A stretch of DNA of 64,000 nt from an uncultured Nitrospiraceae bacterium (GTDB lineage: Bacteria; Nitrospirota; Thermodesulfovibrionia; Thermodesulfovibrionales; Dissulfurispiraceae), in the NCBI GenBank assembly GCA_963705105.1, contig CAVPIW010000014.1:160001-224000 (forward strand), in the 5' to 3' direction. Made by a program: the position numbers. Positions 21,301 to 24,300 of this stretch are shown piece by piece. Numbering within the stretch: position 1 is the stretch's first letter; the number at the start of each line of letters is the position of its first letter.

Positions 21301-24300
21301 GCTGGAAGAAAAGGAGTCTGTCGTGGGCTGGTCCGAATCAAAGCACGACGACAGGATCGCGGGTAAGGCGCGGCAATTGCGCGAAATGCTGTCCGGTAAG
21401 GACAACGGCATGGTGAGCAGGAAGTATTTCAGCTCGGGCAAGGTGACCGATGAGACAATGGAGATCATCGAAGAGGTCGCAGAAATGCTCCTGAACGAAC
21501 TCGAAGGCGGCGAAAAGGAAAGGGCCTCCAGAGACGGTGCGGCCGGGTCGCAGCATGAACCCTCGCGCAATGCCCTTCAGGCGACGGAAATGGAGCCCGT
21601 GATCGTCTGAGCAGTGGCCGGACTTGTCCGGACAGGTCTTTTCATGCGAATATACCTTATCGGTGCAATACACTTCCGGGAAAGGCGGGGCGTATGCGCC
21701 GAAAACCTTGCTGCGGCGACACCATAACTCTCACGGAAGACAACCTTTCAAACCAATGGTCGACCACACAAAGAGTGGAATCCTGAAAGACAAACCTGAC
21801 GAGGCTTATCGTCGCCTTCAGCAAGGCTTTGAGGCGCTTCGCCACGCCTTTCTATGCAACTACAGGGTATATTCTTTAACCATATCGACAAGGAGAATTC
21901 CATGGAAAACCTGATGGACAAGATAGCGCACCTTGAGGAAACCCACAACCGGATTGATCCGGAGCTTGTAAAACGGAAGAACATCAAGCTGGGTCTCCGG
22001 AACGCCGACGGCACCGGTGTCGTCGTCGGCATCACAAGCAAGGGACAGGTCCTCGGATACGAGAAGGACGACTCAGGAGAGGTCAGGGCCGTACCGGGCA
22101 AGCTCCTTTACTGCGGCTATGATCTCGAGGACCTCGTCGCGCACGCTGATACGGAATGGCGGTATGGCTTCGAAGAGGTGGCTTATTTGCTCCTGACCGG
22201 GGAACTGCCGAATGCGGACGATCTGGTCAGTTTCACAAGGGCGCTCTCGGATCGGCGGGCCCTCCCCCAGGAGCTCAAGAAGGTCCTCCGGTTCAACTCG
22301 AAGAACGATGACCAGATGTGCGCTCTCCACACGGCTGTCTCGTCGCTTCACAAATTCGACGCCAATCCCCGCACGACCGACATACGCGACGTGACGAGGC
22401 AGTGCATCGGTCTCATCGCCAAGATCCCCGCCATCATCGCCTATAATCACCTCGTCTGCCGCTCCTGGCGGGGAACGCGGTCGTCCTTCCTGGAGCCTGA
22501 ATCGGGCATGACGACGGCCCAGAGCTTCCTCACGATGCTTCACTGCCGCGCCCCGTCCGACAAAATCGCCCATGCCTTCGACATCGCCCTGATGCTTCAC
22601 GCCGAGCACGGAGGCGGGAACAATTCGACCTTCACCGTCAGGACGGTGTCATCGAGCCTGACGGACACCTATATGGCGATCTGCGCGGGGATCGCATCCC
22701 TTGCAGGACATCTCCACGGAGGCGCCAATGAGGCCGTCATGAACATGATGGACCACATGAAACGGGACCTGAGGGACTGGGAGGATGACGACGAGATCTC
22801 GGCCTACCTCGGCGGGCTCCTTGACGGTCGCCACGGCGACCGGTCCGGCAAGATCTACGGCATGGGCCACGCTGTCTACACCATCTCCGACCCCCGCGTC
22901 GACATCCTCAGGAAAAAGGCCGCTCCCTTCGCCGAGGAGGCGGAAAGGACGGATGAACTCCGGCTCTTCGAAAGAGTGGCGAGACTCGCTCCCCCGATCA
23001 TCCGGGAGAGAAAAAGTAAGATCGTCTGCCCGAACGTCGATTTCTTCTCGGGCTTTCTTTACGATATGCTCGACATCCCCCAGGAACTCTTCACTCCCAT
23101 CTTTGCCATGTCCCGTGTCGTCGGTTGGTCCGCGCACCGGATCGAAGAGATCATCCAGGGCAGGCTCATCCGCCCTGCCTATGTCTCAACCCGGGAAGGC
23201 ATCAGACCGTACGTTCCCCTGGAATCGCGATGAAGAGGGAGCGCGGGCCGGTGCTGCACCGACCCGCGCTTTCTTACTCGGAAGCGGTAAAACTTGTCGT
23301 CCCCAAACCGCTGTTGCTGTTGGAAGGGTCATAGGTGTAGACGGCCACCTCGTAAGCGCCCGGCTCCGAAATGTCGACGGTCCCCGCAAAGTCACTCACT
23401 GAACCGTCATAAACGAGGGGTACCTCGCGATACGCCTTGCCGTCTTTCCTGATCAGCGCTTTGATCTCATACCTGTTCGAGTCCCATATGCCGCCCGGCA
23501 TAAGAGGACACCCTCACATCATGACGATGTGCGCTTTTATTCCGACACTGGCTTTTCCGTTTCTGAGCACGACCCGGGAGCCCTCCGCAGGGGCGGTCAC
23601 ATCGACGGCGAAGCCCGGCAGTTCGAGAAGCACCCCGTCACCGCCGGTCAGGTGTTTTCCGGGGATGACCCACTGGGTGACGCTGACGCTGTTTGCAGTC
23701 TTCAGCACCGAGAGCGGACCGAAGGCCTTGATTTCGACCTTCGTCGGAACGGATATGTCGATAGTGGCGGAAAATTTCGCCGAGTCGGGGGTTGAAAGCG
23801 AGACTCCCCGTTTCGGGTTCATGATACGGTCGAGATCGCCCGTGCTGCCCGTGGTGACACCTTCCGCAAGCACTTTCCGCGTCGCGGTGTCCGTTATCGT
23901 CACCTGCGCGCCATTCATGCTTGTCCCGAGGAACTTGGCGTCTTTCGTCTTGACACGGACCGTTATTTCCGTTGGAACGGCGGCAGCCCTGCCGGCTATG
24001 ACCATGCATACCAGGAATGCCGCAAGAAGCACCATGAATCGCATGTCTGACCTCCTTCGTGTCGTTTTTACCTTGTTCACCGTATCGTTGCTATACGGCC
24101 TCCGGCAAGGCGGGGCGAAGCACTCTGAAAAACAGTGTCAGTGACAGTGTGAGTGTCAGGATAAGGTTCACCTCTATTGACCGTCGGCCTGACATGATCC
24201 TCAGGGGATGATTAAGGTGTCGCCGCATCAAGGTTTTCCGCGCATTCACCCCAGCCCCGCCTTTCCCGGGAATGAAGGCCTACTGTACTGTAGCATAAAA

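Follow-up and report, generated by a model that had tools for sequence, protein, structure and literature searches.

Most known selenoproteins adopt thioredoxin-like folds. Redox centres of the CxC type are represented by the CPC motif of Mia40 and the CGC motif of Erv2. The N-terminal domain of DsbD, a periplasmic Ig-like domain with a redox-active cysteine pair, provides a precedent for thiol chemistry on a β-sandwich of this kind and is fused to a membrane electron transporter. Cox11 carries a CxC-type motif (CFCF) on an Ig-like fold, CusF combines Met with a Trp cap, and the SoxY/SoxZ pair bears a likeness to two Ig-like domains. BSepDB, with 111 selenoprotein families, was built by homology to known families. 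DUF1573 (PF07610) was first reported as a selenoprotein in the Olavius symbiont study (PMC1976440) and is already catalogued as a "UGC" selenoprotein in Table 1 of a 2026 review (PMC13188914). All 119 families of this catalogue bear a Pfam, NCBIfam, TIGR, cd or PTHR identifier (PMC13188914).

The window analyzed here is the whole stretch of 64,000 nucleotides from an uncultured Nitrospiraceae bacterium. It contains a gene (see the table of features) whose frame has exactly one internal stop, a TGA, in the context ...KAHIVMM[TGA]GCPLMPGGIWD..., that is VMM-U-GCP. A protein-to-genome comparison matched the frame to its own genome with 100% identity over residues 1 to 256 with one TGA. The first-pass annotation had already joined two small genes into one frame with a single TGA, and retranslation from the window returned the same frame; it comprises 256 codons, however, and not the 255 given there, and the TGA, the site being the same, is numbered residue 177 instead of column 176. 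The free energy of −15.8 kcal/mol given for the hairpin behind the TGA was reproduced, whereas its placement 7 nt after the UGA was wrong: the hairpin GUCCUC...GGGAC begins 4 nt past the A of the UGA, which is +8 from the U. A second, terminator-like hairpin stands after the TAA and not after the TGA (−30.6 kcal/mol for the folded 52-nt stretch). It is shared with a convergent citrate synthase gene and is absent from the list of a consensus scan.

Features of the probable selenoprotein gene and its predicted product, in window coordinates
Feature	Position	Strand	Basis and remarks
Shine-Dalgarno sequence AAGGAGG, 6 nt 5' of the ATG at 24044	24051..24057	(−)	upstream sequence read directly
Whole gene of the probable selenoprotein, one gene and not two	23274..24044	(−)	256 sense codons and TAA; translation
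Predicted signal peptide, residues 1-22, MRFMVLLAAFLVCMVIAGRAAA	23979..24044	(−)	sequence and model (helix 2-20, first strand at 23)
Predicted Ig-like β-sandwich domain 1, residues 23-143	23616..23978	(−)	model, fold search, alignment, dimer prediction
Predicted Ig-like β-sandwich domain 2, residues 145-256, bearing the U-G-C loop	23277..23612	(−)	model, fold search
TGA, strongly supported as selenocysteine U177	23514..23516	(−)	translation, homologue alignment, TGA-form loci, no variant in four covering runs
Conserved loop U177-G-C-P-x-x-P-G-G-x-W-D188, putative active site	23481..23516	(−)	alignment, model
SECIS-like hairpin within the coding sequence	23479..23511	(−)	fold; criteria of PMC13188914, section 5
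Terminator-like GC-rich 14-bp hairpin directly 3' of the TAA	23240..23270	(−)	fold

The product is predicted from its sequence to be exported by a Sec-type signal peptide. Its N-terminal hydrophobic helix ends in AAA, after which cleavage was assigned by eye, and residues 1 to 22 contain no twin arginine. The AF2 model (pLDDT 97.4, pTM 0.89) is all-β and predicts two Ig-like β-sandwiches, in agreement with the earlier description of a secreted two-β-sandwich protein. Domain 1 contains a conserved G62-x3-G66-x2-G69-D-T loop as well as much of the predicted dimer interface. In domain 2, a loop of residues 176 to 192 joins the modeled strands 164–175 and 193–200. This domain (141–256) reached Z-scores of 9 to 11 to many Ig, FN3 and MG domains in the wide VIA fold search, which returned only generic matches up to Z 11, none of them standing out and none a functional relative. 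Foldseek against the PDB likewise yielded no functional relative, its tandem-Ig matches having TM-scores of 0.2 to 0.3, and the sequence search against the PDB gave nothing below an E-value of 0.24. The family protein is predicted to form a homodimer: the natural Cys form P0175 of Hyphomicrobium sulfonivorans, run with an alignment made for this analysis, scored 0.87 against 0.00 for the best control, a score attained by 20 of 30 solved homodimers and by 1 of 23 solved monomers. The dimer runs had at least 92% of their contacts in common, with a partner pLDDT of at least 91. In the P0175 prediction, the interface residues that are placed with confidence do not include those of the CGC motif and, thus, the dimer is uninformative on the CGC site.

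A protein search with the joined frame recovered 622 clusters at 90% identity (E ≤ 1e-5) and 601 representatives at 50% identity (E ≤ 1e-3). The wide, unnamed family of the first-pass annotation was hereby recovered, with 622 clusters in place of its 285 homologs at E ≤ 1e-5. Wherever the source gave a name among the 120 homologues listed, it was "hypothetical" or "uncharacterized". No Pfam or NCBIfam model matched the window protein, no family match was found among the members searched, and in the ESM Atlas all clusters met by the natural Cys form P0002 were named "hypothetical protein" and had no Pfam family. In an alignment of 149 sequences, composed of the query and the listed representatives of up to 350 residues, the TGA column holds Cys in 139 of the 141 filled rows, and the next two columns hold Gly (137/142) and Cys (140/142). 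The TGA does therefore fall on the first cysteine of the C-G-C motif, as had been proposed, the motif being nearly invariant rather than invariant. Of 147 rows, 108 have Met at M175, and M176 is occupied by Met in 89 and by Leu in 45; at W187, 137 of 140 rows have Trp. A conserved His or a further conserved Cys is absent from the alignment. Within the organism family of the window, 3 of 34 other genomes contain a homologue: one of 48% identity without a stop, one of 43% without a stop, and one of 46% with a TGA at the identical column. The first-pass annotation had given a full-length homologue of 48% identity without a stop in 1 of 25 other Dissulfurispiraceae genomes. The family is nearly universal in the genome family f29, where it occurs in 70 of 75 genomes in a housekeeping gene context. 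In P0091 and P0093, which give no clear functional lead, the domain pair is fused to a β-lactamase-like serine hydrolase and carries C-S-C. The long N-terminal extensions of L111 and L053 were rejected as fusions, being out-of-gene read-through.

The TGA form is not confined to the window, as the first-pass annotation had cautioned it might be: four further genomes of the 401 from the phylum of the window have a TGA at the identical column, with conservation that reaches the C terminus, and at least 117 loci were added from elsewhere. A TGA-specific DNA pattern, applied to species-representative genomes, yielded at least 119 loci, and in 117 of the 119 listed the family HMM matches in frame on both sides of the TGA. 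These listed loci come from about 114 assemblies and at least eight phyla (Acidobacteriota 45, Nitrospirota 27, Thermodesulfobacteriota 20, and nine other labels including 13 unassigned), and their carriers include a cultured strain, Thermodesulfatator autotrophicus S606. Sec occupies the first position of the pair in every recovered form; the pattern required Pro-Gly-Gly codons and Sec at the N-terminal position and could find only such an arrangement. At least 12 switches between Sec and Cys were counted on the tree, and many lineages that are anaerobic or come from sediments appear to have Sec in place of the first Cys. Six of the 150 listed representatives (P0057, P0094, P0103, P0108, P0117 and P0128), and likewise the 95%-identical P0152, stop within the strand immediately ahead of the motif, which is the pattern expected of gene callers halted by a TGA.

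The hairpin of the window consists of a 5-bp lower stem and a 6-bp upper stem (UAUGCC/GGCAUA) with the apical loop GGGC, which begins 17 nt after the UGA. A bSECIS is described as having a loop of 3 to 9 nt, a stem of at least 4 bp, a G in the first two loop positions, a spacing of 16 to 37 nt and a minimum free energy of −7.5 kcal/mol or below (PMC13188914). All of these properties were found in 112 of 116 distinct TGA forms and in 5 of 10 Cys forms. Herein, the hairpin is partly fixed by the amino acids, as the G-rich loop corresponds to the CCN-GGN-GGN codons of Pro-Gly-Gly that the search pattern demanded. In the TGA forms, the stretch of 48 nt that begins at the UGA is more stable than its synonymous recodings (mean z −0.90, with 79% of values below 0, n = 114), which does not hold for the Cys forms (mean z 0.07, n = 10). 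The two groups differ with a Mann-Whitney p of 0.02, a value that overstates the support because the sequences are related. For 122 ungapped TGA forms, RNAalifold gave a consensus of only 2 bp and no register common to all, because the register varies between clades, and each sequence was therefore scored on its own.

The machinery for decoding is present in the genome of the window: a tRNA-Sec with the anticodon TCA, SelB (362.6 bits), SelD (317.4 bits), itself with a TGA, and SelA (594.3 bits), the latter on the same contig as the gene. Among five other TGA-form genomes, SelB was found in four; it was not found in the remaining one, G296 (95% complete, 150 contigs), which has SelA and tRNA-Sec on the contig of its TGA-form gene. 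Since four of five Cys-form genomes have SelB too, the machinery does not tell the two forms apart. The covering contigs of two DNA runs and two RNA-library runs leave the TGA unchanged, the RNA-library contigs being no proof of transcription. Strain variants differ 3' of the TGA by nine nucleotide changes that lead to two amino acid changes (X16), or by four that lead to one (X2 and X1 each); these changes lie mostly at third positions and are mostly synonymous.

Could the TGA instead be a recent nonsense mutation or an assembly error, leaving a pseudogene or the two small genes as annotated? Gene callers do split or shorten genes of this family, as for the window gene and P0152, and broken copies do occur: a match in G255 with one TGA was rejected as a Sec form since it is a decayed copy with its stop at another column. 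However, the TGA of the window stands at the identical column in at least 121 other loci across many phyla, it is kept in four independent runs, the 79 codons behind it are conserved with mostly synonymous change, the genome has the hairpin as well as a complete Sec machinery, and the terminator follows the TAA. This explanation is effectively refuted. The Sec/Cys pair, conservation downstream, other UGA homologues, a bSECIS hairpin and Sec machinery were all found, meaning five kinds of sequence evidence asked of such a gene, and the reading of the TGA as selenocysteine, already put forward in the first-pass annotation, is strongly supported on sequence grounds. The UGA at 23514–23516 is very probably decoded by the genome's own tRNA-Sec, SelA, SelB and SelD, steered by the hairpin 4 nt downstream, whose G-rich apical loop is built on the Pro-Gly-Gly codons.

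Taken as a whole, the locus is very probably a true gene that decodes Sec, and its family one that is not catalogued so far, a judgement that does not extend to its chemistry. The family matches none of the 119 families in the whole of Table 1 of PMC13188914, and the full-text literature searched holds no description of it. That neither the family nor its Sec form is described, as had been stated previously, holds as far as models, catalogue and literature can test it. Selenoprotein catalogues and databases serve genome annotation and the mapping of selenium use; as far as testable, they lack a family that has a TGA form in well over a hundred species and whose genes are routinely split or shortened by gene callers. 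A predicted secreted protein with an Ig-like fold is, moreover, an unusual kind of selenoprotein. Because Sec and Cys have been exchanged repeatedly at a single position, this position can be taken as the putative reactive residue of the family. Moreover, both forms have cultured carriers, Thermodesulfatator autotrophicus for Sec and Hyphomicrobium sulfonivorans and Methyloligella for Cys, so that the function is directly testable.

The predicted product resembles DUF1573, likewise without an assigned function, in that both are secreted Ig-like β-sandwiches in which an invariant or nearly invariant C-G-C ends a β-strand after an N-G-type turn and Sec replaces the first Cys, a likeness that is no proof of descent. 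They differ in size, DUF1573 selenoproteins having about 140 residues and one domain as opposed to about 256 residues and two domains, and in the flanks of the motif (S-CGC-T versus MM-CGC-P...PGG-W-D). PF07610 is not among the matches of the window protein (cut-off 26.1 bits), is not among the 25 families listed for 76 family members at E ≤ 1 (0/76), and misses the window locus in the genome even at E ≤ 10, where it matched seven true DUF1573 places. One of these true members (G000:C7:167040-167333) reads ...LKPS-U-GCTAV..., and SCGCT is found in 112 of its 120 relatives. With hhalign, the probability against DUF1573 was 1.7 to 1.9% (E 0.025–0.029) and, with the CGC-type alignments, only 10 to 19 columns were aligned, covering the strand and CGC. 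Membership in DUF1573 is not supported by these profile and profile-profile comparisons, and common descent is neither shown nor excluded. The UGC-containing TlpA family shares the U-G-C motif, the periplasmic location and a presumed selenenylsulfide redox centre but has a thioredoxin fold, as opposed to the all-β Ig-like model of the window protein; the two-sandwich model (pLDDT 97.4) and the lack of thioredoxin-like Pfam matches speak against a thioredoxin-fold selenoprotein.

As the reactive centre we infer the loop MM-[U/C]-G-C-P-x-x-P-G-G-x-W-D, which is nearly invariant and lies where a strand of domain 2 ends. The mechanism that we prefer, at somewhat less than even probability, is a redox-active selenenylsulfide or disulfide centre. 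Herein, the selenol or thiol at 177 would be the attacking nucleophile and would close a strained 11-membered selenenylsulfide or disulfide with C179. The Ig fold would thereby bear a CxC redox centre in the periplasm, which would act by reduction or exchange on a protein disulfide or on an oxidized substrate containing sulfur or selenium. Several predicted redox selenoproteins of the catalogue likewise have UxC or CxU motifs (Table 1, PMC13188914). Within 6-kb flanks of 70 TGA-form loci, no redox partner, thioredoxin-like or DsbD-like gene is conserved, no neighbour family is common to more than 12 loci, and no DsbD-type membrane partner stands near. The N-terminal domain of DsbD differs in Cys spacing and sequence, and DsbD is not among the 50 best fold matches. 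Nearly as likely as the redox centre is the binding of a soft metal. With Sec decoding unchanged, the [U/C]-G-C loop would be the site for Cu(I), Zn, Hg or similar in a periplasmic metallochaperone or buffer, and the neighbouring Met-Met together with the invariant Trp would either complete this site or shield it. The conservation of M175, M176 and W187 is consistent with such a site. In 15 complete genomes of f29 the gene stands between metG on one side and, in the same orientation, a cation-diffusion-facilitator gene (11 of 15) and a CobW/COG0523 GTPase gene (8 of 15) on the other; this synteny lies within one family, however, and may reflect relatedness alone, and no metal gene is among the neighbour families common to the 70 TGA-form loci. 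Small periplasmic β-sandwiches of the Cox11/CtaG and CopC/CusF types bind Cu via Cys or Met, but no sequence match to them was found, and the family has no conserved His and no further conserved Cys, nor a His- or Met-rich motif beyond MM. CopC (Z 9.5) and the CopC-like domain of YcnJ (Z 9.0) occur among the generic fold matches, the former no better than about 50 other, unrelated Ig-like domains. Weak YtkA-like Pfam matches in 3 of 76 members (best E 0.01) lie below the cut-off, and a Cox11-like bridging site gains no support, as the two Cys are outside the predicted interface. Many predicted metal-handling selenoproteins are listed in Table 1 of the review, including CopZ-like proteins (GxUC/CU), the SO_0444 Cu/Zn efflux transporter (UxC), P-type ATPases (UxxC) and CobW-related proteins (UxxC) (PMC13188914).

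It is improbable that the protein is a periplasmic carrier like SoxYZ, with a chalcogen bound covalently to the loop as persulfide, polysulfide or selenium. The two Ig-like domains resemble the SoxY/SoxZ pair, many carriers are sulfur- or selenium-cycling anaerobes, judged from the names of the sequence records, and a rhodanese gene adjoins an odd tRNA elsewhere in the genome of the window, which is context. Yet neither SoxY nor SoxZ ranks among the 50 best fold matches, the family gene has no conserved sox, dsr or rhodanese neighbour, and the near-universal occurrence in f29 within a housekeeping context speaks against this role. Rather doubtful, but of wider reach, is the idea that the [U/C]-G-C loop at the strand end of an Ig-like sandwich constitutes a distinct periplasmic catalytic or metal-handling module, common to the window family and DUF1573 by ancient descent or convergence. 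If so, (seleno)thiol centres would come in two structural classes, the thioredoxin fold and the Ig-fold CxC proteins, and the predicted homodimeric two-domain family, with about 600 clusters and near-universal in one large family of the phylum of the window, would be the most widespread member of the latter. The neighbour families of the 70 TGA-form loci are of housekeeping type (ABC ATPase, RNase HII, nucleoside transporter and others), and hemE, hemH and an amine-oxidase-family gene stand upstream in five to seven of these loci, all in one clade.

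Translation of the gene under study gives a single frame of 256 sense codons closed by TAA, with a lone internal TGA in the context ...KAHIVMM[TGA]GCPLMPGGIWD.... An AAGGAGG is positioned 6 nt 5′ of the ATG, and folding places a GC-rich hairpin of 14 bp directly 3′ of the TAA, with no such hairpin after the TGA. The first-pass annotation had described this single frame with one TGA correctly except for small counts, as it gave 255 codons and placed the TGA at residue 176 instead of 177. Contigs of two DNA runs and of two RNA-library runs span the TGA with no variant at it, the latter not being proof of transcription. 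The 9, 4, and 4 nucleotide differences 3′ of the TGA in the run contigs lead to only 2, 1, and 1 amino acid changes, respectively. The locus is very probably a genuine Sec-decoding gene of a so far uncatalogued family.

The genome encodes tRNA-Sec, SelA, SelB, and SelD. SelB was also found in four of five other genomes examined that carry a TGA form, meaning a family gene with TGA at the first Cys of the C-G-C motif (Cys forms have a Cys codon there). It was not found in the fifth, G296 (95% complete), where SelA is present and the TGA-form gene shares its contig with a tRNA-Sec. A further tRNA of the window's genome scores above the gathering threshold of the Rfam tRNA-Sec model; its anticodon loop CUGCAAA gives the anticodon GCA (Cys), with which it is unable to read UGA. 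It lies with a rhodanese-domain gene on one side and an HGD-D gene on the other, and resembles the tRNA-Sec-like tRNA-Cys or allo-tRNAs known from anaerobes.

Locations of the genes and tRNAs discussed (G, genome, G000 being that of the window; C, contig; L, locus)
Feature	Location	Strand	Bits	Remarks
TGA-form gene	window 23274-24044	-		
Internal TGA	window 23514-23516	-		
tRNA-Sec	G000			anticodon TCA
SelB	G000		362.6	
SelA	G000:C14:125055-126419	-	594.3	window's contig, 35 kb upstream of window
SelD	G000:C11:79300-80208	+	317.4	own in-frame TGA
tRNA, anticodon GCA	G000:C10:176600-176691 = L002:1501-1592	-	55.9	92-96 nt; Rfam tRNA-Sec model, gathering score 47
DUF1573 selenoprotein	G000:C7:167040-167333 = L166:1471-1863	-	69.4	PF07610; secreted, 131 aa
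tRNA-Sec of G296	G296:C72:1789-1882		71.4	~7.5 kb from TGA-form gene (9413-10159)
Family copy in G255	G255:C4:297343-298655 (L221)			
Family copy in G155	G155:C4:99439-100716 (L222)			

The selenoprotein family is genuine, widespread, and so far uncatalogued. Of 401 genomes from the window's phylum, 97 contain a homolog. Four of the 97 (G296, G262, G350, and G211, from three different families) show a single TGA at the identical column, flanked on both sides by conserved sequence. One genome per prokaryote species was searched with the DNA pattern TGA-GGN-TGY-N9-CCN-GGN-GGN-NTN-TGG-GAY, which gave at least 119 loci. Among the matches listed, 117 of these 119 have an in-frame family HMM match both before and after the TGA. 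These at least 117 loci are spread over about 114 assemblies. By label, Acidobacteriota account for 45, Nitrospirota for 27, and Thermodesulfobacteriota for 20, with 13 unassigned and the rest under eight smaller labels; among the matches listed, one is from a cultured strain, Thermodesulfatator autotrophicus S606. Hence, the objection in the first-pass annotation that this genome alone carries the TGA form no longer holds. A gene caller that meets a TGA would be expected to end the protein there, and six of the 150 top-ranking cluster representatives, like a metagenome protein of 95% identity, do end in the β-strand immediately N-terminal to the motif. A FastTree phylogeny was built from 72 TGA forms of full length and 116 Cys forms, leaving off 45 TGA-form loci whose HMM coverage was partial as well as Cys representatives that lacked the motif or fell outside 235 to 320 aa. 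TGA and Cys forms are interspersed on this tree, which takes at least 12 changes of state. Decayed or second family copies occur in G255, where the stop lies in a different column and the CGC is lost, and in G155, where a second Cys-form copy has a disrupted N terminus and a TAA near the C terminus.

The family belongs to the SECIS-decoded bacterial selenoproteins. The bacterial SECIS model has an apical loop of 3 to 9 nt with a G in its first two positions, an upper stem of 4 to 16 bp, a UGA-to-loop distance of 16 to 37 nt, and an MFE of at most -7.5 kcal/mol (PMC13188914). The hairpin of the window, previously reported 3′ of the UGA with a different spacing, begins 4 nt after it and has an upper stem of 6 bp, the loop GGGC at a distance of 17 nt from the UGA, and an energy of -15.8 kcal/mol. 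Among the matches listed, 112 of 116 distinct TGA forms lie within all four limits versus 5 of 10 Cys forms. Since the loop Gs belong to codons of the conserved Pro-Gly-Gly, which the search pattern demands, the hairpin is partly given by the protein sequence. This was controlled for by synonymous recoding of the 48 nt from the UGA. These are stabler than their recodings in the TGA forms among the matches listed (mean z -0.90, 79% below 0, n = 114) but not in the Cys forms (mean z 0.07, n = 10; Mann–Whitney p = 0.02, a generous value as the sequences are related). RNAalifold found no common hairpin register across the TGA forms; the register varies from clade to clade.

The family counts 601 representatives in a 50%-identity set and 622 clusters in a 90%-identity set. 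Searches of Pfam, NCBIfam, and the sequences of the PDB gave no match; source-given names among the matches listed are all "hypothetical" or "uncharacterized," and the clusters that the atlas gives for a Cys form all lack a name. An AlphaFold2 model (76-row alignment, pLDDT 97.4) consists of an N-terminal helix, judged by eye to be a predicted signal peptide, and two β-sandwiches at residues 23 to 143 and 145 to 256, in agreement with the secreted two-sandwich protein first proposed. Fold searches returned generic Ig, FN3, and macroglobulin domains alone (Z ≤ 11). Conservation peaks in the loop MM-[U/C]-G-C-P-x-x-P-G-G-x-W-D directly after strand 164 to 175, in a Gly/Thr/Asp loop of domain 1, and at Pro/Gly positions together with a C-terminal N-x-G. 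The latter two overlap a predicted homodimer interface. For the natural Cys form P0175 of Hyphomicrobium sulfonivorans, the predicted homodimer scored 0.87 versus 0.00 for the best control, a mark attained by 20 out of 30 homodimers and 1 out of 23 monomers of solved structure, with at least 92% contact agreement between runs and a partner pLDDT of at least 91. The two motif Cys are absent from its confidently placed interface residues. In P0091 (709 aa) and P0093 (680 aa), the two-domain module carries C-S-C in place of C-G-C and is fused, N- or C-terminally, to a β-lactamase-like serine hydrolase with an S-x-x-K motif seen by eye.

Each of the 119 prokaryotic selenoprotein families in a 2026 review has a domain identifier (PMC13188914), and the window protein matches none of the Pfam/NCBIfam models behind them. 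The NCBIfam models of the three "hypothetical" families of deep-Sep gave no match either; BSepDB, as far as its accessible description goes, compiles previously reported families. No description turned up in the full-text literature searched, and the earlier claim of an undescribed family and Sec form holds to that extent. Among catalogued families, the DUF1573 "UGC" selenoprotein comes closest: it, too, is secreted, has an Ig-like fold, and carries Sec in place of the first Cys of a strand-end C-G-C. Membership therein was rejected: PF07610 fails to match the window locus even when hits up to E ≤ 10 are admitted, none of the 76 members has it among its listed families, and profile–profile probabilities against 7, 28, and 120 DUF1573 sequences are just 1.7 to 1.9%. 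With the CGC-type sets (7 and 120 sequences), the alignment is confined to 10 to 19 columns around the CGC. Both families may work alike. Unusual in the window family is its secreted Ig-like architecture. This genome also encodes the known "UGC" DUF1573 selenoprotein (in-frame TGA, ...LKPS-U-GCTAV...), and a search of 20 relatives showed TGA forms of it in 7. P0273, P0274, and P0275 (153–161 aa, named c-type cytochrome) join the post-CGC part of DUF1573 to a cytochrome c domain (PF13442) and are probably gene calls starting 3′ of the TGA in such a fusion; if so, this hints at a redox partner for the DUF1573 motif.

The two motif Cys (or Sec and Cys) are the only candidates for chemistry; the family alignment contains no conserved His and no other conserved Cys. 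Sec usually stands in for the attacking Cys of redox centers. In addition, UxC and CxU motifs recur in predicted redox selenoproteins (Table 1, PMC13188914). For these two reasons, a redox-active selenenylsulfide or disulfide center is tentatively favored for the [U/C]-G-C loop. Soft-metal binding is a possibility nearly as likely, given the Met-Met flanking the motif, the invariant Trp, and the many catalogued selenoproteins that handle metals (PMC13188914). Gene order points the same way in one large family of the phylum, f29, where 15 complete genomes (L201–L215) share, on one strand, tmk, holB, metG, the Cys-form gene, ftsH (in 5), a CDF cation efflux gene (11/15), and a CobW-type GTPase gene (8/15). 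However, this synteny is confined to that family, and no such neighbors are common to the 70 TGA-form loci. A role of the loop as chalcogen carrier is improbable. The function of the family is now sharply testable. As a separate observation, in 5 to 7 of the 70 TGA-form loci (L087, L112, and 3–5 more), all from one Thermodesulfobacteriota/Syntrophia clade, the gene is immediately preceded, on its own strand, by hemE (URO-D), ferrochelatase, and a HemY-like gene of the amine-oxidase family.
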